A stretch of 64,000 nucleotides of DNA from Rhizaria sp. SCN 62-66 (taxonomy: Eukaryota), in NCBI GenBank assembly GCA_001724265.1, contig MEDY01000010.1, positions 1 through 64,000 on the forward strand, read 5' to 3'. Both the position numbers and the translations under genes were made by a program. Positions 960-23,623 of this stretch are shown one piece after another. How positions within the stretch are numbered: the stretch's first letter is position 1; the number at the start of each line of letters is the position of its first letter. A model generated the notes under the pieces. The model was not told the DNA's origin. It made no database searches and saw only the letters and a list, made by a program, of their open reading frames with translations.

Positions 960-1962
960 GCTGGTTCTTGTTTACGATGAGGTTAGCACAGCATATCATA
1001 TTTGTCTCCGCAATATTTGAATGAAGGAGAAGATACATCATTAATTAGCCCGCCGTAGCCGCCCTGCTGCTGCTGCTGTGCCACGGGACGTCCCTGTTCC
1101 AGCCACTTGACCTCTCAAGTCATGTCGCGCTCGGCTGCGCCAGCATGACTTTCTCTGCACGCTCGCGGGCTGCTCGAAGGACGTGGGCGGAGTTGACGTT
1201 CGCCGCAAGGGGGTTTCGGCCGCCAAGATGATGTCGCGCTTGCGCTCTTCGCGTTCAAGTACGTGCCGGCGTACCTCGCGATCAAGAGGGGGTTCGGAAG
1301 ATGCTCGGCATTACTGAGACAGCGCTCAAAGTGGCGCACAACAAGTCTCCACTGCGTAAGTGAGGTTTTGTGCACACTCCATGCAATCTGTAGGGCGCGC
1401 CATGACCTTTTAGGGAGAGCCGTGTGGAGGGTATTCGTAGACAGAGGGAGCAGGAGTAAGATGTGATAACAATGAGCTTAGGAAGAGAAATTTAAATAGT
1501 ATGGTTATAAGCACTTAATACACTATGGCGCTTAATAATACCCCCTGTGATGATCAGTAAGTGTGTATTTGCCTAGGTCGGAATCAGCTTTGATTGGAGG
1601 GCAGTAACAGACGACAGGTTTGCCTCAGGATACCGTGAGTAGAGGAAGTTGATGAAGTGCTTGCAAAATTGACAGATATACAACAGTGCGCCCGCGGACC
1701 AGATGACGGCGGCTGACCTGGTGCAGTGCTCTCCCGCCGCGATCGAGGTCGCCGAGTTCCAGTACCTGGTGGGTTGAGGAGTGGCGACCATCGACCACTT
1801 TCCGCAACCAATGCCCTCACTCTTGCAATCATCAGATAGTGATACCACTGATATCAGGGTTTATCCACGCAATATTGTATTTTCTCATTGTTCTGATTTT
1901 TCTCAAATTGCTATCTGTTCTGACTTCTCCTTCTTGCCGTCCTGCCTCTCAATCTCTCAGTG

Positions 1963-4900
1963 ATGGACCCGTACTCCAGCTCTGTTGGTGCTTACCCGGG
2001 TGCCATCCCGGGTGCCCCATACGCTGCAGGTCTCCCCGATCCTTACTCTGCCTCCGCCATGTCCGCATACGGCCCCGCGTACCCTGGATCGATCAACGCG
2101 ACTCTCCCGATGCACTCTACCTCCTCTCTCCAGCAACAGCAGCTGTTGCAGCAGCAACAGCAGCAGCAGCTGCAGCACCAGTCCGCGCTGGTCCCGCTCC
2201 CCGTCTCGACCCTCCGCGAAGACTTCGTGCAGAACGCCATGCGTTTCCTGCAGAACCCCGAAGTGGTCAAGTCTTCCCCTGCGACGCGCGTGGTGTTCCT
2301 CGAGAAGAAGGGGCTCGCCGCCGGCGAGATCGCCGAGGCGCTGCGCCGCGTGATGCCGCTCGCGCCGGAGACCGCGCTCGTGGCCACTGCCGCCAGCAAA
2401 GGCCAGTCCGCCTCCGCCGCGGTTGCCGGGCTGGCCGACCCCGCGCAGTTCGCCGCCGTCACCGCCGCGGGCAACGCCTCTGGCTCCGTCTCCGGCTCGC
2501 ATCCCCCGGCTGCGACTAGTGACAGCGCCGGTGGCCTCTCGACGGTGGCACTGCCAGGAATGGTTCAGGTTGGCCCCACTTTGTTCGCGTATCCGTACCA
2601 GCTGCACCCCAGCGTCGCCGCGACCGCCGCCGCCTCCCCGGCATCCTCAGCCGCGGCCGCTGCGTCTTTGGCGGCGGTGGCCCGCCGGTCCCCCGCTCGC
2701 GCGTCGTGGCTCTCTTCCCTGCTCTCTGCGCTCACTGTTGCCGGGGCCGCGGCCGCGAGCATCGCGCTCACGCGAAAGCTGCTGCTGTCCTCCGCCGACG
2801 CGGAGCCCGGGGCCGCGAGCGGAGCACTCGTACCCGTGGGCTCCAACAGCAACGCAGTCTCGCAGGGCGCGGAGGGCGGCGACGTCCTCAGACTCACACA
2901 TAAGCCCGCTTCAGACGCCGCGGGCATCAGCGCTGGTCTCGTGAGTGCGCCCGATGCTGTGGCCATTGCAGCCGCTGCCTCCGCCGCCGCCGCCGCCGCC
3001 ACCGCCGCCAACGGTCCCCGCCCCAGCCCTTCCAACAACAACAACAGCACCGGCTTCGCCAACAACGGCGGCTTCCGCAGCCTGAGCGGCGGCAACAACC
3101 CGACGACCCGCAGCAGCGTCGCTGAACTGGTCGTCGAGTCCCAGGAGGACATTTTCATCAAGGGCTTCAACGAAGTCAAGGCCACGATCACGGACCTCAC
3201 GAGCGCGCTCGCCGCGACTCAGAGCGCCGCCGCCGGTCACACCGCCACCCTCGCGTCTCTGGCGCATTCGTTGGCTCCCGTGGCCTCGCTGGCGCCGGCG
3301 TGCGATGCCGCGCAGGCGGCCGCGGTGGGCGCGCAACGCGCGGCCGAGGCCGCCGTGGCCGCCGCCGACAGGGCCGCGGAGCGCGCCGCGGCCGCCGCCG
3401 AGGCCGCCGGAGCCGCACCGGCCGACGGAGGCGCCGCCGCAACCGCGCGCGAGGCTGCGCTCGCCGCGACCGTCACCAAGGCTGCAACGGACGCTGTCGA
3501 GTCGGCCGTGGCCGCCGCTGTGACGGCCGCGGTGGCGCGCGCGGTCGCCGAGGTGGAGGCGCGCGCCGTCGAGCGGGAGGCCGCTCGCGAGGCCAAGGCT
3601 GCGGCTGCAGCGGCAGCGGCGGAGGCCAAGGCTGCGGAGGCTGAGGCGGCGCGCGGGGGCGAGGCGGCGTGGGGCAAGCGTTTCGACGCGCTGCAGGGCG
3701 CGCTGGAGGCCGTGGAACAGATCCTGGGCACGCTCGTGCAAGTGCAGGTGCAGCAGCAGCACGGCGGCGCGGGAGGTATCAGCGCGACGGGCCTCGTAGG
3801 CAGCAGCAGTGTTAACAATGCTGCTGCGAGCGCGAGTGCGGATGCTGCGAGCGTGAATGCTGCGACAGCAGCCGCTGCGCATGTGGCCAGCGACGCTCAG
3901 GAGGAGGGAGACGGCGCAAGCGCAAGCGCCACCGCCCACACGAATACTCGTAGCGACCGGGACGTCAAGGTCAAGGCTTAGCTTGTTTCCGCAACTGCTG
4001 CGAACACACAGTCAACCTTGCTGGCAACGGCTCCTCTGCCCTCCTCATCCTCGTCATCGTTGTCGTCATCGGTGCTGTCGCCGTCCACGGGCTCCGACTC
4101 CGCCGCCGTCACCGCCCCCGCCGCTAGCACCACTGCCGATGCTGCTGCTGCGGCACCTGCGGGCGCAAGCACCAGCAGCAGCGAGCAGAGCGAGTACCTC
4201 TCCGCATGGGTTGCCAACTCGAGCTCCAGTTCTCTTGTCCCCAATCCTTCGGCCTCCAGCTCAGACGGCAACGCTGCTGCCGCCGCAAACGGCGTGTCTG
4301 TCAACACCGCCTCGAGCTCCACAGTGCCTGCCCCCGCCTCCGCGCCCGCCCCTAGCACCGGTGCGAGCTCAGCGCACACCGGCGCTAGCGCGGGCCACAC
4401 CGCAGCTCCTGCGACCAGTGTCAGCACTAGCGCTGCGACCGCGAGCACGGGGTTCACGTGGGCCGCTGACGTCACTTTGCCGGCTACGCGGCCTGTGACG
4501 CCGCCTCCCGTCAGCACTGCATCATCAGCATCAGCCACTGCTCCGACTGCTACGACGGCAACGGAGGTTGCTCGTGACGTGCCCACCCACACCCCGAGTA
4601 ATCCTTTCACCGACGGCACTATCTACAACGCCGCCATCGCCCGCCCCGGCGTGAGCGCGGAGATCTCTCTCCCCGCCGACCCCACCGCGGCGACCGATGC
4701 GCAGTGTGGGCTCCAGCTCGCGGCCGCGCGCGCCGCCGTCGCCGCGTCGCTAGCCGACATGCGGATGACGGCCGTACGCGAGTTCACGGCCTCCTTCGAC
4801 GCCGCGCGCGCGCAACGTGACGCGTCTGCCGCCGCCGCCGCCGCCACAGCCTCTACTGGCAGTGACAGCGCTGCGGCGACGGAGGCCAAGGTGGCGGTGG

Positions 4901-5397
4901 CCGGCGGCGGCGATGACGGCAGCGGCCTCACTGTCACCGCCACCACCACTGATGCCGAGCTCTGGGAGGCCGCTCGCGCGACCGAAGTTGCGTACGCAGC
5001 GAAGACGCTGCTGATGTATCTCCGCAACATCACCAAGGACCCGACCAAGTCGACCTACCGGCGCATCAGCATCACCAACGCAGCGTTCCGGCGCATCTCC
5101 CAAGTCCCGGGCGTGGAGCGACTCTTCACGGCGCTGGGTTTCGAGTCGCGGCCACCCTTCTACGAGCTCTCGGCGGACCCCGTGCTGCCGCTGGGACTGA
5201 CAACGGTATTCCAGCTTGCCAACAACAGCATGGGCAGCGCTGAGATGGACGAGTGGTGCACCAAGGCCAAGGAGGCCGTGTTCGCGGCGCGGCTGACCGT
5301 GGTCGGGGAGGTGCTGCAGAGCGTCAGCGAGCTGCAGACGGAGCTTGCGCTGGGGCCCAGGGGCGGGAGCGTCGAGATGCCGCCGCCGCTCGAGTGA
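1963..5397 (+). CDS. PEX14: Peroxin Pex14 (Pex14_N, hydrophobic segment, coiled coil) fused to a C-terminal PUB domain; in-frame TAG at 3979-3981
   Basis: Pex14_N motif LREDFVQNAMRFLQNPEVVKSSPATRVVFLEKKGLAAGEIAEALRR and PUB motif KTLLMYLRNITKDPTKSTYRRISITNAAFRRI...LFTALGF. ORFs 1960..3981 and 4018..5397 share one frame, separated only by TAG, with no AT-rich spacer. Ends TGA. Confidence 0.85.
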
Positions 5398-5895
5398 GCG
5401 CTCGAGTGAACGTGACATTGTCAGACTGACGTGTAAGATGAAGCTGAACTGTCATGTCGTGGCTTGACCAGTCGTTTTGTTGTTCCAAGTGATTATTTGA
5501 AAATATTTATGCTATATGGCCAGCGGACATTACGAATACATATCTATGATTTCGCTTAATCGTAGTCCACTCGAGTTGTGCATTGTTTTGGCAAAGTTTG
5601 TGACTTGTCACGCGTTTGTGGTCGTTTGGAGATTTGTGTCTGCTCGAAGCAACTTCATCATGTCTGACTGATTAACAGCATTTAATATATTTATATTAAT
5701 ATAACATATACACTGCAATGCATTGAATATTATATCTTACGACAAATTGACTTGACGATCAAATGTAGTCGCTAGGTCTACGCAAAGTCCCACTTTTGAC
5801 ACAACAACTCATGCTGCCCCTGATTCCTGTATTTCCCCACATAGCCCTAACAAAAGGCATTAACTGCTTGTCAGATCCCCTTTCGCACAAACTTC

Positions 5896-7860
5896 ATGTT
5901 ACGTTGCACACCGGCTGCACTTCGGTTTATCCCTTTGAACCCGGCAACCGTGTGCGAGATATCTTCCTTGCTCCGCGCCCGACCCCGCTTCACCCTCCGC
6001 GCTGCCAAGCCCCACTTGCCCCTCTCGTCTCTCACCACCACGCAGCAGCAACCATGCGGAGCTCATGCCACCTGCAGTCTGGCGCATAACGCGTTGGTGC
6101 CGCTGACCGGCGTCGGCCAAGAGACCGCGGGCGCCGTGTACGGGCGCAGCGCGTTCGCGCGCGCGGGCGACGACATTGGCGACCCCAGCTTCATCTCCAC
6201 CGCGCTCGGCTCGCTGCGCACGGCGCCCACGCCCACGGCGCGCGCCGCGGCCGTGCTCCTGCCGCTGTGCCTGGACGGCGGCGTGCCGTCGGTGCTGTTT
6301 ATCCAGCGGTCGCGCAGTATGCGCCACCACCGCGGGCAGGCGGCCTTCCCGGGCGGCATGCTCGACAGTGAGGACTGTGGCGACCCGGTCACGTGCGCAG
6401 TGCGCGAGTGCGTCGAGGAGATCGGGCTGGGTGTGAAGCCCGTACTGTCGAGCGCGTTCTTTACGCAGGGCGCGATCAGCCGCTTTGTGCCGGTGCAGGA
6501 GCGGCTGGCAGCTCTCTCGCGCGACGCTCACGCCGTTCAAAGCACCAGGGACCTTAGTGTCAGCGCTGACGGTGGCGATGGCCACATGTCGATGACTGCG
6601 ACGTTTGCGATGTCGAGGACGACGACGAGGGCGCCCAGCTCTATTTCAGGCTCCGACTCGAGCTCTAGCTTGAGCTCGAGCTCTGGCGCTGGGAGTGCTG
6701 CTGCGGCGACCACGCAGACCACTGAGCACAAATATGCAACCTTCACGAAGATGACACAGACGACAACAAGTAGAGCGCCGTCTCTGGGTACTTTGCGGGC
6801 GACTCGCAACGGCAACCACAGCGACTGCGAGCAGTGCAGCGACTCTGAGTCCAGCAGCACCGCAGATCCCGCTGCCCACGGTCTCCACGGCACCGCCGCC
6901 GACGCCGACGACCCGCTTGGGACCGACTCCGACGCTGGGTCGGACGTCGACGCCCTTCTCGCCTCGACGCCGGACCTGGCCGTCCTGGGGCTGCACCACG
7001 ACTGCTCGACGAGCGAGCGCCACCGCCCCGACGGCACCGTCATCACGCCCGTCATCGGGCTGCTCGCGCACGACGTCACCGTCACGCGCTTCGCGCTCTC
7101 GCAGGCGGAGATTGGACGCGTCTTTTGCGTGCCGCTCGAGGCGCTCGCCGACCAGTCTAAGTGGGGGGTATACAAGGGACGGCCTAGCTTTTAGCACAGG
7201 CTCGATGAGGGGTACTTAGTGTCCCGGCAAGGGCACTTGGACACTGCTGCACCCGGTAAGGGTATGTCGTCAAAGCCGCCTCGTGTCAAGTGCCTGACGG
7301 ATGCTGTTGAGGCGCTGACGAAAGCGCCTTACAACACCAGTCCAAGCAGCAGCAGCGCGACAGCGGTTGATGCGGATGAGACGAGTGCTGTTATTATGCA
7401 TTACCCGTTTTCACTGGATATCGATGACGATATGTGTGACGGCACTCTGCAACCAGCCTCTACAACAACAACAACGACAATGACAGGGCACATGGGTAAC
7501 GTAACGACAACGACGAGTGCTGCGGGGGCAGCGACAACGACAACGACGATGAGTATGATTAAAACGTCCTCTGTCGTTGCGTCACCGCTTGGACAACAGG
7601 TGCAGTATCAGCCGCCAACTCGGGAGACATTTCCAGGCCTTGCGGCCAACGCCACAATTGTGGATGTGAAATTATCCGCAGCGCAAGGCACTGATACTGC
7701 TGATCCGAGTGCAGCAGCTGCTGAGAAGACCGTGAGCAGCGACAATGTTGGCGTTGTTGAGGCACATGACGAAGACACATCACGTCGTGTTGTTATCTGG
7801 GGAGCTTCAGCGTGGATTCTGAGCGTGTTCATCAAGCAAATCGTCCATAAGGTGAAGTAA
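5896..7860 (+). CDS. Nudix CoA pyrophosphatase (NUDT7/NUDT8/PCD1 family) with a possible mitochondrial presequence; in-frame TAG at 7192-7194
   Basis: AAVLLPL...LFIQRSRSMRHHRGQAAFPGG..D...CAVRECVEEIGL (NuCoA motif and Nudix box), VITPVIG and EIGRVFCVPL lie before the TAG. The family C-terminal motif VIWGASAWIL lies after it in the same frame. Ends TAA. Confidence 0.88.
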
Positions 7861-8263
7861 GAAAACAACAATTCGGTGTTGTCACACTTCGTTTATTTCA
7901 TCATATTTTATCTAGCCTTTTATGAAGACCATACATTTATTTATTCCTCAAGCTTAAGACTGAACGATTGCACCTTGAAGACACGACGCGACTCGATTCA
8001 CAACGCAGACATAACACCGCGACTTATCCAGACCGTAATGTCCAACACATTTAAGCCTCAAATTGAGGTTACAGACAAAAATGTACATACGAAAGACATT
8101 TGTAAAAATCTATGATGTACTCTGAACAAATGAAAACACCGCATTATACTGATTCTAAAAACTGAAGCTACTGTAGGCAATTTAGTCAGACCGTGAGTGT
8201 CTTTTAAGTCAATTAAATGTAAGCTTATTACGTATTTGGTTTTGATATTGGCTGGTGCCGTGC

Positions 8264-11200
8264 TTATTGTTGCATGCAACCCTTGTCCTTCTTTTTCTTC
8301 TTGTCATCCTCGGCAGCTGCAGCCGGAGCTTCCTCCGGAACAGCAGGAGGTTGTTCTTGCTCATGCTTAGTCCCACTTGCCACACCAGCGTTTGATGCAG
8401 TAGCAGGTGCCTCGGTCTCAGCAGCACTGTGCTGTTGCTGCGTCTCCGGTTGGTCAGTAGCGGGACCAACCTCAACGCTGCTAGCACTGCCAGCAGAGCC
8501 ACTCACATCATCAAACACCGTGGCAGTCGCCGCGTTCTGGGCAGACTCACTAGTTTCGCCAGCACTTGAACTCGCACTTGTGTTCTCAGGAGCAGCGGAA
8601 GCGAGACTGCTGTCTGAGGCAACAGCAGCAAACTCAACGCATTCGTGAATAGTCTTGCGAACCTCAGTATTATTGCTCTCCTGAGCTTTCTCTTCAGTCT
8701 GGGCATCCTTAGCGTCATCATCTTCCTCAGCCTCGCCCGACGACGGGGGCGCCTGGTGCAAGTAGTAGGACCTCGACGGCCGCGCGCTCGCCCCTGCGTC
8801 GTCCCCCGTCGCGCCCGTCGTGCTGTTCGCGACTCTCGTAGAGCCCGCACCGGCGTTGATGGTCGGCGCGCGACCCCACCCGCTGCGCCAGTCCACCTCC
8901 TGCTCCGCCGCCGCACGGGCGAGGTCCTCTTTCTCCTTCGCGGCCGCGGCGGCCTCGGCGGCGGCCGCCAGCGCGGCCTCGCGCGCGGCCGCTGCGGCAG
9001 CCTGCTTGGCGATGTTGGCGGCGACGACGGCCTCTCCTATGTGTGCGTGCAGAGCAATTGATCAAGCAACGAGTTGAACAGGTTAAGTGATGAGTGGGCT
9101 CGTTTCAAAATTAAGCTATATGTAAAGGAAACATAAATATATCACGGATATGAATGATGAGTCCAAGAATACAAATGCAGAATAGATCATAGAAAGTAGC
9201 GTACCCGGGTAGACGAGCGCGAGCGCGACGGCGGCCTCGTTGTCGTCCTGCTCCTGCTCCCACACCGGCGAGTCCCAGGGCAGCAGCGTCTGGATCTGCA
9301 TTGACGTCGCCGCGGCCGACGACCCGGGCCGCACGAGCGCCGCGGTCGCGGCGGCGGCGGCGGGCTCGTAGTCCTTGTTGTGGTAGTGGCTCAGGCCGTG
9401 TTCATCGCTTGCGGTGCCGGCGCCCGCGTTGCCGGTGCTGTTGTCGGCGTTGGCCGCCTGCCGCGCTGCGAGCGTGGCGTACTGCGGCGACGGCGACGTG
9501 GCGCGCGAGAAGGAGTCGCAAGGGAGCGACGGCGCGACGCGCACGACGAGACCGTCGTCATCGTCATCGTCGTCGTCATCGCCATTATTACCGCCCTCAA
9601 CGACACTCGCCGTAGTGGATGGTTTGGACTCGTGAACAGTCGCGTCGCCGTCGTGGTTCTCAGCAGCAACATCATCGTGATCGTCATCATTTGCAGTAGC
9701 ATGCTTTTCGTTCACAATTTTCTTGCTGCTGCTGCTACTGCTCAGGGCGTTGATGTCTTCGCCGTTGGCCACCGCACGCATGCGGGCCTCGAGCTCGCGC
9801 TCCAGCGCCTCCTCCACCTCTGCGTACTCCCAAACCTGATCCGCATTCACTGGCAGCGGCGCCGAGAGCACCATCGACCGCCGCGCCAGCGCTGCGGCCA
9901 AGAGAGACGGAGAGTCGGGCGCTCTCTCGACCACAATGGCACTGACGCCGCTAGCGTTGGCGGCATTAGCGCCGGCACTATCCTGGTTACCGGTGGCGGC
10001 CATCTTTAGCTGCGACTGCGAGCGGGACTGCGCCAGCAGCTGCAACGTGCTGTTGCTGTTCACTGGCTCGCCCGCTGCGCCGTTGAAGATCGCGGGCGCT
10101 TGGCCCGCGGCGGCGACGCGATGCGGGCGCCTGGGCGACACGGCCGAGAGCGCGAGCGCACACGTCTTGAGCGGGCCCTGGTAGCCCAGCGTGTGCAGCA
10201 GCGCGCCGTCGATCTGCAGCGGCGACGCGTACACCTGCACTGTGCTAAGGTCGCTCGACTGCCCGCGCCCGTGGCCGTGGTGGCTGTGACCATGGCCGTG
10301 GCTGTGAGAGTGGCCGTGAGCAATGTCGATGTTGCTGTCGTCGCCGTCGTCATTGGTGCCGTGTAGGCTCTCACAGTCGCTGCCCACCTCGCGACCGTGA
10401 ACGTGAGCGGAGTCAGGTTCGCCATGGTGTTGCTGATGATGTTGCTGTTGCTGCTGCTGGTTGGCGGGCACGGGCGTGCCGGACCGCGGCGTGTCCGACG
10501 GGGACGACGGCGGCCTGACCTTGGCGAGCGCCGCGGCCGACACGGGGGCCGTGCTACCGGGCGCCGCGGGCACTGCCAGTGGCGTGCGCATCGGCGGCGG
10601 CGGGCCCCAGCTGCCGCGGACACGCACGGCAGGGGCGGCGCCGGCGCCTGCAGTGCCAGTGCCGTCCTGAGTTGACCGCTCGTTGTGCGCGTCACCGTCG
10701 CCCTGCTGTTGCTGTTGCTGCTGGTGTTGCTGGTAGCACTGCTGCCGGTAAGCCCTCCTGTCGCGCTCCTGCTACTCCTGCTCCTGCTCCTGCTGCTTCC
10801 GCAGCGTCCGCGCCGCGCGGCTGCCGCGAGGGCTCTCGTCGCGCTTGCCAGCCGCGCTGCCGCCGCCGCCGCCGCCGCCGCTGTGGCTGAGGCTGCCGCG
10901 GCGCGTCCCGGCGTACTCGACGCCCGCGCTGCCGCTCCGGTAACTCGCTGCGTGGTCGTTACCGTTCCCGGAGTTGGCCGAGTTCGCGGCGCTACTCTTG
11001 CTCTGAAGGCAGTCGGCGGCGTCCCACAGCGTGAAGTCAAGCCCGGGCGTGGTGACGAAGCCGGCCGAGTTGATGTAGCGCTGCTTGCCCGGCAGCGGCA
11101 CGGCCAGCTCGGCGATGCGGGCGGGCAGCGGCCGCGACACGACGCCCCTGTCCTTCCCGCTCTTGGCGCTTGGGCCGGCATGCTTGGAGTCCGTGCCGTT

Positions 11201-13540
11201 CGCACTGCTGCCGGTCGAGAGCCCAGTGGGCGCTGGCAGCGGGCGGCCGAGCAGCAACTCGCGCCGCCTGCGCAGCAGCAGCTCGTCGCTGGCGGCGCTG
11301 GAGCGCGCGCGCGCCGAGACGTGCAGCTGCGCCTCGGTGCGCTGCGGGTGCGGCGCGGCGGGCGGCAGGTGCGCCGACAGCGACGCCAGCAGCGCACTCA
11401 TTGCGGAGGAGGATGTCACCGGCGCGTTGCTGTTGTTGTTGCTGCCAGGGCCGCTGGCCGAAGCCGAGGCCGGCTGCAAGTAGACCGAGGCCGCCGCGGC
11501 GGTGGCCTCGAGGCGGGACTGGAAGAGGAACGAGTCGGCGCGGGACACCGAGGCCACTGCAGTCAGACTAGAGCGCTTGGACTGGGACCCCATGGGGCCC
11601 GCGGCCGCAGACGCTGTCCCGGTAGCAGTGGCCGCAGCCGCAGACGCGGAGTCGGCTTGCGATTGTGCGCCAGCGGGCGGCGACTGCTGCTGCGGTAGCT
11701 GCTGCTGTTGTTGCTGCGAGTTGTTAGGGCGTGCAGAAAAAACGTCACCAGCAATGTCCGCAATAAGTGCGTCATAGCGCGCCTTAAAGCGGTCGAGCTG
11801 CACGCCGTGCGAGACTGCAGTCGGGGCGATGGCGGCCAGCACTTGCTCGATGCTGAGCGCTTGACGCACTGCAGTTCAAAAAGAACGAACCAAAACCACA
11901 GATCCACATCATGAGAAAAGTATACATATAAACAATTTAATCAAATGCAGATAATTCAACACTACCAAGAATAAAGGCAACAAATCCACAGTTTCCCGTT
12001 TTGTACCTTGCGGGAGCGGGACGTCGACGATGAGCGGCGCCTTGACCAGCTCAGCCAGCATGCGCGCGTGCACCGTTTTGACCATTCGGGCCTTCTCCTT
12101 AAGCACTAACGCCTGCTCCTGCACTGCGGCGCGCGCGGCCTGCCGCTGCTCAGCGCTCTCGAGTTTCTTCTGCAGGTTCTCTCGCGCGGCCTCGCGGGAT
12201 AGCTCGACGTGGTAGGCCGCCTCGCGCGCGCGCTGCATCTTGGCCTCGTTCTCGGCCTGCCTGCGCGCGCGGTCCTCGGCCTCCAGCAGCTGCACGGCGC
12301 GCAGCTGCTCCGCTGCGCGAGCCTCGGCCGCGGCGCGCGCCGCGGCCTTCTCAGAGATGCGCTGCTCCGTCGCGCGCACGCTCTCCTTGTACTGCGACGA
12401 ATGCGCGACCACGCGCGCGCCCTCGCTTGCCGCCGCCGCCGACGCCTTCGCCAGGCTCTCCTGCCGGCGCGCTTCCGCCGCAGCTAGCCGGGCCCTGGCC
12501 GCCTCGGCCGCGGCGGCCGTGGCGAGCGCCTCTTTTGCCTGCTTCTCGCGCTGCGCTTTCGCGATGGCCTCGGCGGCGGCGTCGGCGCGTTCACGACGCA
12601 GCTCGGCGTCACGCTCGTTGCGCTCCGCTGCCACCGCGGCCGCCGCGGCTGTGCGCCGTTCAGTCTCGCTCTTGATGTGTTGGGACCGCGCCGCGCGCGC
12701 GTTGTCGAGCTCCGCGCAGCGGCGCTGCACGGCGTCGAGGCTGCTCTGTAGCGACTGCGCGCGCGCGGCGCGGTCCTCGTCGCCGGCCGCGCGCTTCGCG
12801 GCCAGCGCGGCGGCCGCGGCGGCGTCCTTGTCGCGGACGCGGCGCGCGCGCGCTTCCGGGGAGGTGACGGTGCCCGTCTGGCGCGCGATGAACGCAGCGA
12901 GCGCGGCCGAGCGCGGGGATACGCGGTGGGGGTTGTCTTCGCTGTCGCTTTCCCATTCCATCGTGTGCGCGTCCGGGTCCGCGGCGGCGCCGGGGCCCTT
13001 GCCGCCGGCGGTGCTGTTGTTGGGGCGCGTTGCGAGGCGCGGGAGCGAGGCGGGCGCTGCCGCGGTGGACGACGCCGTCGATGCCCCACTGCCAGAGCCA
13101 GCGGTTGCGGCAGCTGTCGATGCTAACGGCGTGCCAGTGCGCGCCGTGCCGCTGCCCGCGCCGGACGCGTTGCTGGGCTTGCTGCCATGCAGTGCGGTGT
13201 GGTCAATGGCGGCCTGCACGCGAAGCTTCTCGTCCTTCTTGGTCGCAATGGCCGCGATCAGGCGGTTGCATAGCTCATGCTCGTGGCGGTCAATTCCGCT
13301 CAGCAACTCATTGCGCTCGCGCTCCACTGCGGCTGCAATGTCAAAGCGGGTGCTGGACGATCGGGACAAGCTCCCCGGTTGCGATTGTGGACCTGTTGCG
13401 GCTGTGGAGGCTCTTGAAGGCCCGGCGCCGGCTGCGGTGGTAACTGTCGGCCGCGTATGCCGCCGGGAGGAGCCGGGGACCGGGGGCAGCACGGGGGCGA
13501 CCGGCTGGGGCGGGGGCGGGGACGCCGCGCTAATAAGCAT
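8264..13540 (-). CDS. ~1,656-aa unknown protein: N-terminal coiled coil, low-complexity middle, C-terminal polybasic + CaaX-like end (KKKKKDKGCMQQ); in-frame TAG at 10774-10772
   Basis: Model complement(join(13540..12007, 11868..9205, 9036..8264)) = 4971 nt. Both GT-AG introns are phase 1 and join four listed ORFs in frame. Ends TAA. The start codon is tentative. Confidence 0.7.
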
Positions 13541-14259
13541 AACTGTGAATACGGGGGTGAGGCCCGGAACAATGATCCTCTCTGGTCTATGAAAGGGAGT
13601 GCTGCTCTTGTTTTCGCGCCGCAATGGAAACAAGGGTGTTAAGGGGTAGTCCTCTGGAAGAGAATAACGCAAGTTGAATAAATTTGAGTGAGAAGGTAAC
13701 ATATAATGAGATTCGAATATATCTTAAACACTTGACATATATTGATTAACGATGAAACGGGCTCGATAAGGCGTGTTCAAGCGCAGGCCCTGCGAGCCGT
13801 TTCTGACCTCCTAACAGACCGACCGAACCAAGAGAGAGACAGTCATGAGCCGAAGGAGGCAATGAGTCGACGTGGACACGATCTTTCTGAGAGTGTAAAT
13901 CGTCAGACACTGCCACTACACCGATATCTGAGTGGTTTTACGATGGTAATCAACTTGTAGTTACTGATCATATTATCCAGCGTGTGTGGAACTACGTTTT
14001 CTCTCTCTATTATGTGTCATAACGATTCCCGGCTGCATTCCGATGTCTTCCTTAGGGCCCTTTCTTTAGTCACCTCTACAGCATTAAAATCGGTTTGAAA
14101 TTTGATGAGCATGCTATAGGAGTACATTATCATAATCGTGCTATAAAAAAATCCGTATGGTGTCGTATTTGATCGACTATTTTCACGCCGTTTCTCCCCT
14201 TCCATTTCCTCACCTGATTGCCCGTGTCTCTTTCTACCTCTCTTTGGTTCTTGCAGACA

Positions 14260-16218
14260 ATGAGGTTCACGCGTGTCCTTCTCGCCGCCCTCCTGGCCGC
14301 CGTCTGGGCTTGCACCCTGGCTCCTCTGGCCTCCGCCTCGCTCCCGGGCACCGGCGCGTGTATCGGCTGCACCGTCGTGGTCGGCATGGCGCAGCAGATG
14401 GCGCTTATCCACAAGAAGACGGCCACTGTCGCACTCAAGGACTGGTGCAACGACCTGACCCAGAACAACGCCGTCGAGATCTGCAACACGCTCGGCTCCG
14501 TGCTGGGCCCGCTGCTCGACCTCGACCTTGCCTTGGGCAAGTCCCCCACGCACACGTGCGTCAAGACGGTCAAAATGTGCAAGGACGAGACGGCTAAGTG
14601 CGACCTCTTCCCCACCTGGCCCCCCAAGCGCATCTCCACCTGCGCCTTCGAGAAGGCCACGTCAGCCGAGTCCCTCGCCGCGCTCGACTCCCAGCGCTCC
14701 GACCTGGGCTTTGCGCAGGCTCTCCTGGCGACGGACAACACGCTCACTGACTTCCTGGGCTACTTCGCGGCCCGCTTCGCCGAGCTGCTCCGCTACGCCC
14801 CCAAGGACACCACCGAGACGCGCACGCCCGCCGAGATGATCTCTGCGCTCGCCGACTACGCCGCGCTGTCCTCAGCGCCCGCCGCGCTGCAGGCCGAGGC
14901 CGCTGCGCTCGCGCGCGTCGCCTCCGCGCTCTCGGCCAAGAACAAGAGCTTCGGTGACGCCAATGGCGGCACGCACTTCGCCCTCGTCGACAAGGACGGC
15001 GACCGCAAGTCGACGTTCGCGCAGCTGCGCGGCTTCGACTGGGCCGGCCGCGACTGCAACGACTGGGACAAGGACATCTACCCCGGTCGCAAGGCCCGCG
15101 ACTCCACCAAACCATCGTCAGTAGATCACAACTGCAATGGCATCCAAGGCGCGAACCCGGCGACGAAGCGCTCCTATGAGGAGGAGCTTTGCGCGGGCAC
15201 CCAGCAGTTCGGCCTGATCTCCGTCGGCGACTCTGCTACAGCGCACTTCGCGGCGCCGCCCGCGTGGCTCGACCCCTCCAAGCCGACTGGCACCGCTTAC
15301 GGCAACATCATCAAGGTCATCTCCAACGAGGCTGACTGGCCGCAATGCTCCTCCACCACGGGCTGGGAGTCGCCCGCCGGGTGCCCGGAGATCCACGGCG
15401 GCGTGAACCAGACGTCCTTCTACCAGAAGCTGCGCCAGGCGAACCGCTGCTCGCACCGTGACTACCACAACGTCGGCGTTAACGGCGGCTCCTCGCGTAA
15501 CATGGGCCCCAACGGCGGCATCATCGACTCGCTCGTGCGCGACCAGGCCAACGACCACCCGGTGATCCTCAACTACGCGCTTATCGGCAACGACGTGTGC
15601 GGTAGCAACCCCAGCCGCATGACCTCGGTCGAGGACTTCGAGAAGAACACGATCGAGGTGCTCGACTACATGGACACCAAGCTGCCCGCAGGCTCCCAGG
15701 TCCTCCTGGGCGGGCTCGTTGACGGCCGCGTGCTCTACGACACCATGGCCGAGCTCATGCACCCGGCCGGCATGAAGTACAAGGAGTTTTACTCGTTCCT
15801 CAACTGCCTCGAGACGTCCCCGTGCGCCGGTTGGATGAACACGGACAAGGCGATCCGCGACGCCACCACCACGCGCGCGCGCGAGCTGTCCAACGTGTAC
15901 AGCACCATCATCGCCAAGAAGAGCTACCGCAACTTCAACATGACGTACATCCCGACGATGGAGCTGTTCCAGGAGGTCGTCGACGCGTGGACCGCGCAGG
16001 GCCGCCCCGCGCAGCAGCTCATCGAGGGGCTCGATGGCTTCCACCCCTCGACCACGTCGCAGTCGCTGCTCGCGGACAAGGTGTGGAACTACGCGCTCTC
16101 ACGCGGGCTCTCGGTGCCCGTCAACCCCAACAACGCCAAGATCGAGGCGCTGTTCGGCAACCAGGGCGGCTACACCAGCGACGTCGCCGACTTCGACGCT
16201 TCTCTCTTCGGCCTCTAA
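14260..16218 (+). CDS. AOAH: Acyloxyacyl hydrolase (signal peptide, saposin B domain, GDSL/SGNH lipase)
   Basis: Signal peptide MRFTRVLLAALLAAVWA; saposin Cys pattern CIGCTVVV...C...C...C..C; RGFDWAGRDCND, GDSATAHF, NRCSHRDYHNVGVNG, ALIGNDVC and DGFHPS motifs. Intronless; ends TAA. Confidence 0.93.
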   Translation: MRFTRVLLAALLAAVWACTLAPLASASLPGTGACIGCTVVVGMAQQMALIHKKTATVALKDWCNDLTQNNAVEICNTLGSVLGPLLDLDLALGKSPTHTCVKTVKMCKDETAKCDLFPTWPPKRISTCAFEKATSAESLAALDSQRSDLGFAQALLATDNTLTDFLGYFAARFAELLRYAPKDTTETRTPAEMISALADYAALSSAPAALQAEAAALARVASALSAKNKSFGDANGGTHFALVDKDGDRKSTFAQLRGFDWAGRDCNDWDKDIYPGRKARDSTKPSSVDHNCNGIQGANPATKRSYEEELCAGTQQFGLISVGDSATAHFAAPPAWLDPSKPTGTAYGNIIKVISNEADWPQCSSTTGWESPAGCPEIHGGVNQTSFYQKLRQANRCSHRDYHNVGVNGGSSRNMGPNGGIIDSLVRDQANDHPVILNYALIGNDVCGSNPSRMTSVEDFEKNTIEVLDYMDTKLPAGSQVLLGGLVDGRVLYDTMAELMHPAGMKYKEFYSFLNCLETSPCAGWMNTDKAIRDATTTRARELSNVYSTIIAKKSYRNFNMTYIPTMELFQEVVDAWTAQGRPAQQLIEGLDGFHPSTTSQSLLADKVWNYALSRGLSVPVNPNNAKIEALFGNQGGYTSDVADFDASLFGL

Positions 16219-16708
16219 ATCAGTGAGCTAGTGAGTGAGTAAGCGTCGCAAAGCATGACAAGATGTGTTGCATTGCATTCGCATCTCTTTGTTTTGTCCT
16301 TTGCGTTCGTTTTGCCTTCGCCTTTCGCTCTTTAACCTTTGAGAGTCGTCAATTGTTGCGTGTTTTAAAAGACTCTAGAGGGCTTCATTTTATATTTGTA
16401 TAGTTGATTTCTGTCGGATTGTTTATGAAACGGACACCTTGCGTGATAGTTACTTTATTACGCCAATAAAGTTCCATTTCTGTTGATATAACTTGTTTTT
16501 TAATTTCGTGACAACATTTGTGGTGAAACCTGATAGAGCCGAGAAGCTGACGAATGCGACATTTCGTACACTTCAGAAATCAAGTACTTTAACGACAATA
16601 GTTAGTATTTTACGCTTGATGAACGTACACTTTGACCGAATATCTCTCATTCTTATTAGACTTTCTGAAAACTTGTTTATCTCTTGCTATCGGTCAGACA
16701 AAGGGAAC

Positions 16709-17695
16709 ATGCACCCTGCTTCACCAGAGGAGCAAGGTGCGGCCCATATCGGCGAAGAAAACCGCGTGATTGGCTATGAGGTTCCTGTCAAGATACACAA
16801 CATTCTCCGCAAAGCTTTCCCGCCTTTGTTTGGCATGGACCGCGGTCACCAGCTTGACGGACACGTCTGTCTGGGTGAACTCGACAAGAAGATCGAGAAC
16901 ACTGTTGGCGGTTCCTTGCTTTATGGTGAGGTTCTGCCTGAGGGCGTGTCCAAGCTCTGCGATTTCGAGCACACACACATCATGAACGCGTTAACCGTGT
17001 TTGACTACGGCATGGGCACAGGCAAGCTCTGCGTGCAGATATTCTTCCAATTCCCGCACCTCGTCCGTGTCGTCGGTGTCGAGATCTCCCCCTCGCGCTA
17101 CGACATCGCCGCCGCCGCGCTGCGCCGCCTCGCGCGCTGCCGCCGCGGGCTCGCTATTATTGCCGACTCGCGGCACTCGTGCGTGCTGATCGACACGCGC
17201 GGGCACCGGCGGCGCGTGCTCGAGTTCCGCTGCTGTGACGTGTTCGATTCACTGCATCCGCAAACGCTCATGGCCCAGGGCGACCCCCACTACAACGAGG
17301 CCGCGGACATCATCTTCATGAACACCGACTTTCCCGCCATGTGCCAGGAAAACCTCGGCAAGCTCTTCCACAGCGTGCGCAACGGCTGCCGAATCGCGAC
17401 CTACAGCGACGTCAAGAAGGAGTACCAACGGCTCGTGAGGGAGCTCAAGGGGAAGCCGCCGAGCGCGACGAGCGAGGGCAGTGGCTCGGTGCTGTGCCGC
17501 GCGACGTTCCCGCTGTGGCAGCACACGGTGAACGTGAGCGCGGAGGAGGACCGGTTCCGGACGACGTGGTCGACGAAGCTCGGACACCACTTCCACACAT
17601 GGACTAAAGGGTCGCTCCAGGCCGGCCACCACACGGTGGCGCGGTCGCCGGCGGACACCCCGGGCTACCGCGCCAACGCTACCGCCGCTACTGCC

Positions 17696-17732
<37 letters not shown>

Positions 17733-17938
17733 CGTCCGCAGCTGCAGCGGGGGTGACTGCAGGCAAGAAGAAGGCTGCGAGCGGCGGCCACCATAACAAG
17801 GAGGAAATGATGTGGTTTTGGGCTGCGGACCCGACGTACAACGCGTGCGGCGGGCACAAGGGCAGCGCTATGCTGGGGACAACGAAGGGCGGGGCTAGCG
17901 TGCTACCAGCGGGCGCATCGGTCGCGTTTGTGGCCTGA
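16709..17938 (+). CDS. DOT1-like class I SAM-dependent methyltransferase
   Basis: LLYGEVLPEG, motif I FDYGMGTGKL, VVGVEISPSRY and ADIIFMN. ATG chosen at the AT-to-GC transition. Ends TGA. Confidence 0.7.
17699..17728 (+). repeat. (GCT)n microsatellite encoding poly-Ala
   Basis: About 10 tandem GCT units inside the methyltransferase CDS. Confidence 0.85.
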
Positions 17939-18436
17939 GGTAGCTGCATCAGATTCGCATCGTATCTGTTGCAGTCGAACTCTATATTTATAACATACTG
18001 AATATCCTTCCAGTGGGCCCAATTTTAAATATATCCCACCTAATTTGTTATATAGTCAAATACACTTTCTTATGTTAGTTGGATGTTGATCTGCGCCCTA
18101 CAGCACTTGCTTTGTGTTGCTAAGCCTCATTTTCACTGTCTAGTGCGGAGAGTCGACCGGCGAGTCTCTAGTCCCGCGAAGGGGTGTTTTGGGAGCCGAC
18201 TACAAAGTTCAAATAGGAGATGTTTCAATCGTCGATTCAGAAAGCGGGCGCATGTATAGATTTATAGACAGTATTGTTAAACCGTGTTCAAACATATACT
18301 CCTAAGTATTCGCTGTGGTCCTGTACCAACCATGTTTTCCTCACACTGCTTCCTCTCTGCCTTTGCTCTTTCCGACGACCACCTCGAGTCTTCTCCCTCA
18401 CACCACACGCATTGTGCGTCTTATTTCGCGCTGCGA

Positions 18437-21400
18437 ATGGACGGTCTTTATCCGCACGAACACCCATACCCCGGCCGCGCCCACGCTCAGCCCATGTTGG
18501 GGCCGCTCACCCCCGCCGGCCCCGCCTCCCTAGGTCCTCACACAATCCCCACTTCCGCGGGCCTGCCCGCCGGTCTAAGCTCGGGCCTGGCCCCTGGGCT
18601 TAGCACCGGGCTTAACGGCGGCCTTGGCAGCGCGCTTCCACTGGCTGGCAGCACCGTCGGCGGCCGCTATCCGCAGACCGGCTCGACCCCCCTCGGCAAC
18701 GGCTCCCACTACGCTCTGTCCGCTTTGCCAGCCACATCTCTCTTCGACGCCCCAGTGCCCGCTTCCACAGGCGCACGCGCACTGGGCATTACCGCTTCGC
18801 CATATACCTTGTCCGCTGCCTCTGCAGCTGCGGCTACCGGAGCCGCCGCAGCTGCTGCTACTCCGCTTTCTAGCCCTGCCGCCACTGACGCAATGTTTAG
18901 CGGTCTCGGCCTCGCAAACAGCGGCGCTGTCGTCGCCGGCGGTCGGGGTTTGATGCATGCCGCACCCACCTCAGTGCCGACGCTGACACCGCCGTCTAAT
19001 TCGGAGCCCAGTGGTTCTCAGGAGAGCGATGTGAAGCACCACCTCTACCACCAGACGTACCGTACCCACCTCAGCCACCCCCGTCACCATGCTCAGCATC
19101 ACAATCTACAGCCGCAGTCTGCCGGCCTGGCTGTGGGCGCTGCACAGGCTCTGCTGCCCGCCGGCATGCCCGCGGCTGCTGCTGCTTCTGCTGTTGCCAA
19201 CTCCGGTCACTCGCAACATTCGCAGGAGAGCATCGGTAGCAGCAAGACTGCGCGCGGTGCCGGCACGAGCTCGATCACCCAAGCTGTGAACAACGGCAGC
19301 AACGAATACGTGAGCTTGTTTGGACAGCACACGACGATGCCTCTTCCTTTAGCAGCGGCAGTCAATAACGATACCGCAGCAAACGACTTCACGTTTCATT
19401 ACGCAAGTAGAGCCAACGCGGCTACGCCTGTTCCCTATAACGCTGCATATGGGAACCACACAATGGACTCGTTTCACGGCAGTTACGTCGGCGGTTTCGA
19501 GATTGGAGTCGACCATGACGACGAGGACGATGACATCATGGGCAGTGCTGTGTATGACATCAACCCCTCCGCCGTCGCCACGCCAGCAACCGCGACTGAT
19601 GCGAGTCTGTACTCTTGCCCGAACGCCGCAACTTTAGGCAGCGGCAATGGCAAGGGTCCAGCTCTTGCTGCAAAGAGCAAAGCTGTGGGCAAGTCGAACG
19701 CGAAGTCCAAGTCATTGTCAAAGAAGAAAGGAGGCAACGCTGCAACTGGCGATGACGACGACTTCGACCCGAACATCGACTACGGCGGTTTCGTCTTCTC
19801 GCCCACCGAGACCTCTGGCGAAGAGTGCTACGAACAGTGCGTGCTGCTCTCGCGCTCGCTGACGACTGAGGCGCTGGACCAGTTCCGCTTCCGCGGCCAC
19901 GCCGACTACTTGGACCCCACATGTCTCGCATACTTACACTCGCTGACCTGTGCAGACCCGCCCGTGCCGCGCACCTTCCTCAACTACCTGCCGCGGCTCT
20001 GCGGCCTCCTCCCCGCGGCCGCGTTTTACCGGCCCGGCATGCACCCCGTCAAAGGCAACCCCGACGCGACGCAGGCGGCGGCCGCGAGCGACCACAGCTA
20101 CGCGCTGCAGTCGCAGTGCGAGGTCTGCGCCTCGGGCGCCGAGGAGTCGCTCATGCTGCTCTGCGACGTCTGCAACCGCGGGTTCCACACGTTCTGCATC
20201 GCGCTGGGTCGCACGCCGCCAGACGGGGACATGTGGGTGTGTCTGCGGTGCGTGTTCGACCAGCGAAGCAGGGACGTGTTGGCCAAGATCTACAACGAAC
20301 AGGTGCAGCTGCGGAAGAAGAAATGTGGCATCTTTTATGCAGCGCAGGGTCACAAGAAGAAAGCAACCAGCCATAGCAACAATATTAACAACAACAGCAA
20401 CACCAACAGTAACATCAGTAGTTTAAGTGCTGGCTACAACTATCATGCTACCACCCATAGTAGTGGTGGTAGCTCTGTGAACGCGAGCACATCAGGCAGC
20501 CCGATTGTTGACAATTCAAACGAGTTTATCACTGCAACTACGAATCCGCAGCAAAGCATGAGCACAAATCAGATTGTTGGTGCTCAGGGCATCAGTAACA
20601 ACCTCGCGACTCCTCAGGCTTCCTCCTCTGTGAATGACGATGTCTCCCGATCTGGCAGCATGAATGTGATCTCGCTGCTGTCCGACTCCGACGACGAAGG
20701 CGAGAGTGCTAGCACACACAGCAATGGGCACGACAATGCTCAAAACATGGTTAAGAACGGCTACGGGAACTGTGATGACTCAAAAACAAGTGTGGCTGAC
20801 ATCGCTTCTTCCGCTGGGGGCGACGGCTATTCGAACGAGTTTTCATTTGCAACCACAAGTCCTCACACCGCAAGCAACACAGGCGGCTACGCCAGTGGTC
20901 ACACCCACGCTGTCGACGCTGTTTCCGGCGACAGGACTGCTACTGCTGCTGCAGCAGTTGCTGGGACGACTGCCGCGGCTACTTTTGTTGGGGACGACGA
21001 TGACGTTGTATTCATTGACGATGATGATGACGATGATATTAAGCATAACGCGTTTACGCGCATCGGTTCTGGCTCTGGCACCCTCAGTCAAGCCACCAGC
21101 AGTCAAAACAGCACCACTATTAAGGCTGCTACGTTTAAGATGAATAGTCGCAAGCGCGTCGCAACATCTTCACCCCTCGTCGACACAGTAGTTATTGGAA
21201 GTTCTCATTCGAATACCACCAATAACAGCAGCCGCAGTCGTTACGCCTCTGCCGAGCCGGTCCCTGCCCTGTAGCAGCTCAACGCTCTTGGTGCCGCTGA
21301 CTCCGACGCCGCCGCTGCGACTGCGGCTGCGGCTTTTGACACGAGCAGCCGCCCCCGCCGCCGCGCCGCCGCGGTCGCCGCAGACTCGATCCGCCTGCAG

Positions 21401-23623
21401 CAGCAGCGCTCGCCGGGCGTTGTGATGGCCAGCACCACGTACCAGGGCGTTAGCACCTGCGGCGTCACCGGCCAAGCGTTGTTCTCCACCCAGACACAGA
21501 CTGCGAGCGCCGTGCCTTTCCTTGTGTCTCAGCAGCACCCCGCTACGGGGCCCGCCTCGCAGCAGCCGAACGCGTCGCAGCAGCTGCACGCGTCGCAGCT
21601 CACCGGCGCCGGCTCGGCCTCGCAATACAGCGACGTAAGCAGTGCGGGCGCTTCGCAGCAGAGCTTCCCGTTGAGCGCCGGCACTGGCGCCGGCCCGGGC
21701 TCATCGCAGTCGTCAGGCGCTGCAGGCACGAGCAACAGCGGCGCCAGCCTCGCCGCCAAGCCGCCCATGCGTTTGCTGGGCTCCGGCAAGTCTGCCGCGA
21801 CTGCTGGAGCGGGGACGGCGCGCGGCGGCCGCAGCGCCCGCGGGACCCGCGGTGGCGGCGGCGCGCGCTCTGGCGCCGGTCGCTCTGGCTCCAGCTCCGG
21901 CGTGGGCGCCGTGTCTTTCGGGAACATGGAGCTCGTGATCGGCGGGCCCGGCTTCAGCGCGTTCCACAGCGTCGAGCAGATGGCCATGGAGAAGGCCGCC
22001 GCAACCGCCGCCGCTGCTGCCGCGAAAGCGAATGGTAGTTTTGACGGCGGCAACATCAGTGGCGACGGCAGTGTGAGCGCGACCGCGTTGGGCTACAGCG
22101 CGAGTAGCAGTAACCACAGCCTTGGTGGCGTCCTCAACATGTCCGAGTCGAGCCAGAGTCCAAGTGCCGCCGGGTCGAGTCTAAGCGCCCCCGCGCTGCC
22201 CACGCCGGTGTGGGGCTACATCCTCAGCGACGCGCCCGTGGCAGGGGACGCGGGGTTCGTGCAGGTCACGGCCACCGTCGCGGTGCCTCCGATGAAGCTT
22301 ACAACTGCAGAGCGCATCAAAGTCGAGAAGGCCGAGAGTGAGGGCTACAGCAAGCCCATTTACCACCGGTTCAAGCCGCCGCAGCCGACCGGTGCGAGCG
22401 GCAGTGGCGGTGCTGGGGACTTGTCCGTGATGTTGCCGTCGTTTGGCTTTATGAACAACTTCTTCGACACTGACGACGTGCCTGGCGCGATGTACTGTGT
22501 GAAACGCTATGAAAAGCAAGCTGCCTTGCAGCAGCCGCAAGAACAGGCCCCGACAAGTGCAAATGCCAGTGTGTCTGCGATTGTTCCGAACAAGTTTACC
22601 ATTAAGGACGGCACCGTGGTCTTCTTCCCGCCCTGGGCCCTGTCTCGCGCCGGGCCGTTTGCGCCGCTGCTGCCTGTCGGCTGGACCGACCGCGAGCTCA
22701 GCAGTGGCACCGGGGTCGGCAACGCCGACAGCCCCGTCTCGCACAACATCGCTTCTAGCTGCAGCTTCGCGACTGCAAACAGTGACAACAGCGGAGCCGG
22801 GGTCACTGCTGATGACGACGAGGACGACTTCGAGATTGAAACTGTGAAAATGACCGTGAACACCGCCAGCGCCCTCGCTTCGCTGCCGCACCCACGGTCA
22901 CTGTGCAAGATGCACCCATTCGTGGCCCCGCGGAACAACACAGCGAGCTCGCAGTCGCTTGCGGCAATGACCTCGTATCTGCAGCAGCAACAACTGCAGC
23001 AATCGGGCTCGTCGCGATCGCACTTGCACTCGAACTCGCACTACAGCTACAACAACAACTACAACAATGCCGCCGCCGCCGCCGCCGCCGCGGCTGCCGC
23101 GGCGAACGTAACTGCAGCCGCGGCCCCGCAGCCGCCGCCGACCGAGGCCGCGGTCGCGCTGGCGCGGTACTGTGACAACTGCCGCTGCGTTATCTGCGAG
23201 AGCCCCCCGCGCGAGTGCCCGGCGTGGACCGACGCGGCCGCGCTGGCGCTGCAGCGCGCGGGGGCGACGTTCGGCGCCCACGCAGGCCACTGCGGCGCCG
23301 CGGCCGGGGACCCAGTGTGGAGCAAGGCCAAGAAGCGCCTCGCGGACGTGCGCGCGCACCTGGCCTCGGACGCGAGCGCGGGGCAGCGGTACATCGTGAC
23401 GGGCGACGGCAGAGACGTCTCGCTCATGCCGCACGCCGACTCCGAGGCCGCGCGGGCCGCCGCGGTCGCCGCTGTAATTGGACTGGGCGCCGCGGTGTAC
23501 GCGTTCGCGCAGCTTCCCGCCAAGGCGATGAACAAGGTCGTGCTGCAGCAGTCCGGCAGCGTGGTGCTGCCGGAGAAGGCGGCGGGGTCGCTCAAGGGGT
23601 GGATTGTCAAGTCAAGCAAGTGA
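18437..23623 (+). CDS. PHD-finger protein with SUMO-interacting-like motifs and a C-terminal RIN13-like Cys/His domain; in-frame TAG at 21272-21274
   Basis: PHD CEVCASGAEESLMLLCDVCNRGFHTFCIALGRTPPDGDMWVCLRC. ORFs 18284..21274 and 21422..23623 are one frame split by TAG. C-terminal LPHPRSLCKMHPF...YCDNCRCVICE...CPAW...HCGA. Ends TGA. Confidence 0.78.

Follow-up and report, generated by a model that had tools for sequence, protein, structure and literature searches.

The Nudix gene and its in-frame TAG

The window, that is, the whole 64,000-nucleotide stretch analysed, carries a gene for a CoA-pyrophosphatase-type Nudix hydrolase at 5896–7860 on the forward strand. The gene is a single exon of 654 codons if one internal TAG is read. 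Its frame runs from ATG at 5896 to TAA at 7858–7860, and the sole internal stop is this TAG, codon 433 at 7192–7194, flanked by ...KWGVYKGRPSF and HRLDE... and probably decoded as glutamate. The family assignment comes from PF00293 (33.8 bits against a cut-off of 21.1) and from five PDB sequence matches (NUDT7, the D. radiodurans CoA pyrophosphatase and NUDT11), all of which are CoA-type Nudix proteins or NUDT11. NUDT8 and PCD1 are presumably further names for proteins of the CoA type. The hydrolysis of CoA is the predicted activity.

The Nudix core consists of three blocks, residues 111–179, 360–427 and 628–652, with low-complexity inserts between them. The CoA-specificity motif region, VLFIQRSRSMRHHRGQAAFPGG, lies at 6292–6357. 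Compared with the motif LLTxR[SA]x3Rx3Gx3FPGG, as quoted in bioRxiv 2020.01.31.929182, the protein has RSx3Rx3Gx3FPGG and opens with LFI instead of LLT. The Nudix box helix (…AVRECVEEIGL) follows at 6355–6429 and is identified by PF00293, the PDB matches and the family HMM; Arg170, Glu171, Glu174 and Glu175 of its RExxEE signature are invariant in 91 of 91 aligned sequences. The second core block, extended here to residues 360–435, is encoded at 6973–7200, 3' of a low-complexity insert. It is defined by the HMM, the relatives and the structural model, and its strand 429–435 crosses the TAG. Another low-complexity insert separates the core blocks at 7201–7776; its pLDDT is mostly below 50, and five relatives carry a shorter insert in the same place. 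The final strand and helix of the fold, VVIWGASAWILSVFIKQIVHK, are encoded at 7777–7857 and supported by the HMM, by conservation and by a pLDDT of about 95 for residues 631–650. The closing motif VIWGASAWILSVFI forms residues 633–646 of the read-through protein (nt 7792–7833). At the other end of the protein, the N terminus (window 5896–6000) is Arg-rich and initially free of acidic residues, much as in a mitochondrial presequence; no SKL-type signal is present at the C terminus.

Gene callers cut the gene at the TAG, and public protein collections hold the two parts as P0254 (432 aa) and P0002/P0405 (213 aa). Four sequencing runs were aligned to 1900–11900. A contig of run X5 covers 6980–7423 with no differences, TAG 7192 included; this run comes with no library record and extends over intergenic DNA, and it may represent the genome's own source material. 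None of the pieces listed from the four runs is RNA across 7192. The relatives have D, A, P, G or T in the column of the TAG. By this alignment the column is a coding position, yet the inserted residue is not identifiable from that site.

The tail downstream of the TAG completes the fold

An HMM was built on 140 family members, leaving out the Nudix protein itself and its closest relatives. The tail matches the last block of the family (model positions 181–205 of 224) with 12.0 bits, while the best of 500 shuffled tails reaches 6.9 bits. The sequence-only reading had placed the TAG inside a conserved fold with the C-terminal motif downstream, and this arrangement is borne out: the motif is in frame, and Trp635 and Gly636 are invariant in 91 of 91 aligned sequences. 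The statement that family members end with an (I/V)WG(L/A)(T/S) helix also holds, the pattern (I/V/L)WG[LAFMIV][TS] being found in 134 of the 140 members.

When the TAG is read as Glu, AlphaFold predicts a strand at 429–435 over the site, a strand at 631–634 and a helix at 636–653, with pLDDT of about 95. The read-through model aligns with NUDT7 (5qh9) over 181 of 185 residues (Z 20.6, rmsd 2.8). The TAG-stopped model aligns over 152 residues (Z 16.2) and ends at chain residue 177. The same 90 homologues were fed to both models, so the structure comparison is not independent of the alignment. The terminal strand and the WG helix are present in the Nudix fold only if the TAG is read, as expected from the claim that stopping there removes the closing motif, and the full NUDT7 fold appears only in the read-through form. 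The protein shares its fold with NUDT7, the D. radiodurans CoA pyrophosphatase and Arabidopsis NUDT11 (5qh9, 1nqy, 9nxm; Z 18–20.6), and has the CoA motif, the Nudix box and the terminal WG helix in common with them. It differs from them in two inserts of about 180 and about 190 residues, in LFI for LLT at the opening of the motif and in having no SKL-type end.

The TAG at 7192–7194 is almost certainly read as sense, in agreement with the proposal that it is translated, for which both the tail match and the complete fold of the read-through model speak. One supporting claim was overstated, namely that the downstream piece has no sensible start: possible starts exist, and gene callers make P0002 (213 aa) from it. 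The sequence-only reading named neither a residue nor a mechanism; its view of the TAG as sense stands, and the feature is better described as a genome-wide reassignment than as one of this gene.

TAG, TAA and TGA in the genome

The behaviour of the three stop triplets was followed in 790 kb of partly overlapping sequence, made up of the window, the search loci and 400 kb from two contigs; this is about 2% of the assembly of 34.9 Mb. The 126 strongly coding open frames of at least 150 codons end with TAA in 62 cases, TGA in 48 and TAG in 16. Median downstream coding scores are −0.59 after TAA, −0.62 after TGA and +0.16 after TAG; the coding signal collapses past TAA and TGA and usually persists past TAG. 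Twelve of the 16 TAG-ended frames extend at least 52 codons further. Among the other four TAGs, two are intronic, one has 33 acidic codons beyond it and one has 8 codons. No clear gene end at TAG is found among the 16, and at most one or two possible ends among the 126. Stop triplets flanked on both sides by coding signal comprise 24 TAG, one TGA and no TAA. As a codon TAG is seldom used: no more than 29 cases were counted in 110,539 codons, compared with 721 GAA and 3676 GAG, and the dynein stretches examined contain no coding TAG.

Several of these sites lie in the window. The TAG at 3979–3981 (forward strand) joins Pex14_N and PUB domains within the frame 1963–5397, according to frame and Pfam analysis. 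A contig from X2, a polyA run in whose library DNA may be present, covers 3769–4031 with no differences. The TAG at 10772–10774 (reverse strand) lies in ...QQEQEQE*QERD... with 562 codons of open frame beyond, and that at 21272–21274 (forward) in a PHD-finger gene (frame 18281–23623) with 782 codons beyond. At 30779–30781 (forward), TAG is followed by 8 codons and TGA, and by frame analysis this is the sole examined candidate for a true TAG gene end. Elsewhere in the window, an open frame at 35448–63089 has 9,213 codons, no intron, no TAG and a single Pfam match, LRR_6. Frames that match saposin plus GDSL lipase (14218–16218), DOT1 (16487–17938) and a PCFS4-type zinc finger (32844–35360) have no in-frame TAG. 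Short imperfect repeats of a GTGAGCGACTGTGGTGACT-like unit occupy 840–960, near the contig start, and look non-coding.

In-frame UAG is found within conserved coding regions of eRF1, four kinase domains, an E2 enzyme, a ubiquitin-like domain and the Nudix gene. Nine of 142 kinase matches have TAG alone. Four intron acceptors (L068, L069, L075, L076) and one TAG in an insert (L072) were dropped before counting, and the four retained sites correspond to e, e, v and one insert in the paralog HMM. The TAGs of the kinesin (L103), the DEAD protein (L173) and all dynein matches are intronic. These calls rest on visual inspection of where alignments start and of pyrimidine-rich sequence upstream. Of a further 16 TAG fragments, 14 have no Pfam match. 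The cause looks genome-wide and not particular to the Nudix gene.

A tRNA gene with a CUA anticodon

ARAGORN calls a tRNA gene with the anticodon CUA at L031:1489–1561 (contig G000:C84), a cloverleaf with CTA followed by a T run. A tRNA pattern search gives 2 matches against 21 in the control and is by itself not significant; ARAGORN called one of the matches. The gene sits beside an ordinary gene of the same genome, and one copy was found. Among 24 other tRNA types of the organism, its best match is Glu(CTC) with a score of 47, followed by 37 for the next type and 31 and 25 for Gln. This set is incomplete, 63 of 506 candidates having been scored, and does not include tRNA-Glu(UUC); by pattern search, neither a second CUA tRNA nor a close Glu(YUC) parent was found. 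The tRNA carries U11-A24, U13-G22 and A46, lacks residue 47, and has A at position 36. In E. coli, as given in the available part of PMC9976931, U11-A24, U13-G22, A46, the absence of residue 47 and C36 are determinants for Glu. It lacks the long variable arm seen in the tRNA-Leu of the organism. Judged by these features the CUA tRNA is of the Glu type, and it would be charged with Glu.

The release factor eRF1

The eRF1 gene (L033, contig G000:C63) ends with TAA and has an in-frame TAG in the N domain, at L033:1593–1595 on the minus strand. It was compared with 117 homologues, leaving out three fused top matches. In the column of the TAG they have E in 106 cases, D in 10 and V in one, and none has Q or K. 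The N domain also carries substitutions at positions that scarcely vary. Thr32 is Ser, giving GSS for GTS, where all 117 homologues have T. Gly57 and Thr58 are Ser and Lys, giving SKASNIKS for GTASNIKS, where 117 of 117 have G and 116 of 117 have T. Glu55, Tyr125, Leu69 and Ser70 are unchanged. The TAG is also present in a second assembly, where L169 is identical at 1626 of 1626 positions; L169 may come from the same material as the genome. The gene is not a pseudogene, since the search gave only one eRF1 gene, its second match resembling pelota. The closest eRF1 relative, P0011, has T58K too, as the sole exception at this position, and Val in the TAG column, the sole non-acidic residue of the 117. 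A metagenome scan did not return the contig of P0011.

The available part of PMC5304391 ties Thr32 to the third base of UAG, and Glu55 has been linked to UAG as well. G57S and T58K adjoin Glu55 and may take part in UAG recognition. Human eRF1 with T32S is nearly normal (PMC3632111), which leaves the substitutions as candidate causes. By comparison with its homologues, eRF1 is altered in two stop-recognition motifs, and it may terminate poorly at UAG.

The probable residue at UAG

Seven of the 20 residues were tried at seven TAG sites inside Pfam domains, with intron acceptors removed, and the bits were summed by hand. The totals are 396.2 for E, 394.3 for Q, 394.1 for K, 391.8 for D, 389.5 for S, 383.4 for Y and 381.2 for L. 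Glu is best or tied at four of the seven sites and at most 0.4 bit off the best at all seven. Its lead is about 2 bits over Q and K and 15 bits over Leu, the lowest of the seven. These scores exclude Leu and Tyr, and it is chiefly the eRF1 column and the tRNA that favour Glu over Gln or Lys. At single sites the picture is mixed. The solved homologues nearest to the E2 enzyme site have D, D, S, S and E, those nearest to a kinase site have A, A, Y, Y and Y, and the TAG in the ubiquitin-like domain corresponds to Q in the organism's own ubiquitin. That domain is encoded at L160:1–2100 (contig G000:C681) in a long frame that also holds an internal repeat and ends in a coiled coil; the contig is of lower GC and is possibly a mobile or foreign element. 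The ubiquitin genes at L158, L159, L161 and L164 are divergent, mostly single copies, start with MSMQIF and end with ...RGGHPQ or similar.

Two earlier assignments were set aside. Gln, the first guess from Gln-rich contexts, is disfavoured by the eRF1 column, the tRNA match and the Pfam bits. Leu, by analogy with the sainouroid exLh, is disfavoured by 15 bits and by a tRNA without a long variable arm. In a neighbour-composition test the 24 coding TAG sites score −8.3 for E, near random positions (−8.8) and far from sets of GAA/GAG codons (median about +10), of which 0 and 1 of 200 draws are as low. The test is also against Q (−14.1), L, K, Y and W. These non-Glu-like contexts may reflect a young codon, derived from several neighbours where the sequence is unconstrained, and they would also agree with mixed decoding.

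Lineage and habitat

The named matches of the ER HSP90 are from Paulinella, Norrisiella, Lapot, Bigelowiella and Guttulinopsis. A FastTree phylogeny of 114 sequences and 744 columns, rooted on Cafeteria and with six near-duplicates left out, places the organism with Guttulinopsis vulgaris (SH-like support 1.0). In this tree of one gene with long branches, the organism groups as a sainouroid (Sainouroidea, Cercozoa). About 11 dynein heavy-chain genes (13 matches) suggest a flagellate. No polyubiquitin junction was found in the assembly, and an Atlas search with Pex14 gave no help on lineage. An 18S rRNA gene at L117:1501–5945, on a contig (G000:C706) that may be of the same organism, is very divergent and has four matches to group I introns. 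Its first insertion has a His/Cys-rich stretch, which we take to be a possible homing endonuclease. Runs containing parts of the window, in small shares (X1–X4), are labelled sludge, wastewater and biofilm, and these labels are the only hint of a habitat.

Proposed code and alternatives

Directly in the sequence are TAG in intact frames, including conserved coding regions, its rarity at gene ends, which lie at UAA and UGA, a CUA tRNA gene and a changed eRF1. We consider it probable that the nuclear code reads UAG as Glu and keeps UAA and UGA as stops. The CUA tRNA would derive from a duplicated tRNA-Glu, would be charged by GluRS and would read UAG and not UAA, as the anticodon rule in the available part of PMC5304391 has it. 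The altered eRF1 would terminate poorly at UAG and be a weak competitor. Together, the two would place Glu at codon 433 and yield the whole 654-aa Nudix enzyme. The reassignment may be recent; TAG would then be rare, and its contexts unlike those of other Glu codons, because the change is young.

At the Nudix gene itself, the TAG could instead be the acceptor of a 27-nt GT..AG intron at 7168–7194 (forward strand), leaving the standard code in place. The GT..AG ends and the length, divisible by three, would allow this, TTTAG also ends one HSP90 intron, several TAGs first flagged in kinase, kinesin, DEAD and dynein matches are intron acceptors or intronic, and the pieces listed include no RNA over 7192. 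Against this, the eight codons concerned are gap-free protein in five relatives and form a hairpin strand in the model. VYKGRPSF is identical at 8 of 8 positions in P0003 and in part in P0256, P0258, P0259 and P0262, and these five proteins likewise carry an insert ahead of the WG helix. In eRF1, HSP90 and an eIF4A-like gene, the seven introns whose lengths were measured span 134–292 nt and start with GTACG or GTATG in six cases and GTCCG in one, never with GTATA as here. Splicing would also leave unexplained the TAGs that have aligned sequence on either side in eRF1, two kinases and the E2 enzyme. The sequence-only reading had named this intron beforehand as the finding that would undo it; we reject the intron, and splicing here is scarcely credible. 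No more credible is a nonsense allele, a pseudogene or an assembly error in a standard-code genome. The assembly is uncurated and the Nudix TAG column varies among relatives, but the tail motif is intact 200 codons past the TAG, and the TAG is seen again in run X5, possibly from the same source material. Errors or decay are further disfavoured because they would yield TGA and TAA too, against the 24 TAG, one TGA and no TAA flanked by coding signal.

With UAG as sense, it might still mean glutamine (or lysine), as in Iotanema, if the CUA tRNA were mischarged by GlnRS or another one had been missed. In E. coli some amber tRNAs are charged by GlnRS, according to the available part of PMC9976931. 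Q and K score only about 2 bits less than E, TAG lies in Gln runs at window 30779 and at L063 and at a Q column in L160, and 63 of 506 tRNA candidates were scored. The Gln runs are expected under any sense meaning, because CAG to TAG is one transition. The absence of Q and K from the eRF1 column in 117 homologues, the tRNA scores for Glu and Gln, the pattern search for a second CUA tRNA and the neighbour-composition score for Q all point the other way, and we regard this meaning as quite improbable. A partial reassignment, with the CUA tRNA competing against an eRF1 that still sometimes stops, or with several tRNAs, would give mixed products. The rarity of TAG and its absence from the dynein stretches examined, contexts that fit no single residue, a single CUA tRNA gene, the unchanged Glu55, Tyr125, Leu69 and Ser70 of eRF1 and the small effect of T32S alone in human eRF1 (PMC3632111) would suit it. 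The TAG in the eRF1 N domain could then act as feedback. But none of the 16 TAG-ended frames is a clear gene end, against 110 ends at TAA or TGA, the N domain of the essential eRF1 itself carries a TAG, and a young full reassignment would likewise be expected to give rare TAGs in mixed contexts. We think partial reassignment unlikely and prefer UAG as Glu throughout.

Comparison with known codes

The nearest comparison is exLh, also of the Sainouroidea, in which UAG is Leu and UAA and UGA are stops. The available part of PMC5304391 describes it as the first non-standard code in Rhizaria and calls for more sainouroid data; there, Guttulinopsis has the standard code and ends genes almost only with UAA. 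By the single-gene tree exLh belongs to the same group as the organism studied here, and in both UAG alone is reassigned and genes end with UAA and UGA. In exLh, as far as that text goes, UAG occurs in most genes examined and eRF1 has L69A, whereas here TAG is rare, Leu69 is kept and the changes are T32S, G57S and T58K. The residue is Leu in exLh, which here is the worst of those tried, 15 bits below Glu. The exLh data are a transcriptome in which, by the same text, no tRNA was found, whereas a CUA tRNA gene is available here.

UAG is read as Glu elsewhere as well. In Oligohymenophorea sp. PL0344 this is done by CUA tRNAs closest to tRNA-Glu, as here; that organism is a ciliate in which UAA is Lys and ten CUA genes are described, whereas here UAA is the most frequent stop and the search gave a single CUA gene (PMC10553269, available part). 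In peritrich ciliates (PMC11687900) and Blastocrithidia (PMC12153298), in the available parts of both reports, UAR is Glu, and UAG has the same meaning as here. There UAA is reassigned along with UAG, and in Blastocrithidia UGA too, whereas no TAA and one TGA are coding-flanked here. UAG as sense with UAA kept as stop is described in the available part of PMC11687900 for Iotanema, Protocruzia and phyllopharyngean ciliates (Gln, Leu) and for Scotinosphaera (Ser). Thr32 of eRF1, Gly in Iotanema, is changed here too, to Ser. The UAG-only reassignments reported in that part are to Leu, Gln and Ser, with UAG as Glu just alongside a changed UAA. In the literature searched, which covered few subscription journals and no supplements, we found no code with UAG as Glu and UAA as stop. 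Nor did the same search, with few subscription journals in its scope, yield a non-standard code in Cercozoa beyond exLh. A heterolobosean reportedly reads UAG as Gln.

UAA and UAG are nearly always reassigned jointly, and a Glu code for UAG only, if true, adds one more variant and is, among the codes found, the second non-standard one in Rhizaria. We somewhat favour the view that this code is caught early, sainouroids having lost UAG as a stop before two captures, one in exLh involving a Leu tRNA and the other here involving a Glu tRNA. On this view the TAG in the N domain of eRF1 could serve as feedback, coupling the amount of release factor to UAG read-through during the spread of the change. 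Two UAG captures in one small group with relatives reported as standard would open the codon-capture route to testing. Unlike the exLh study, the present one has the tRNA gene, the altered eRF1 and the whole genome, and the eRF1 substitutions are candidates for the loss of UAG alone. Standard gene callers split genes that contain TAG, the Nudix gene among them.
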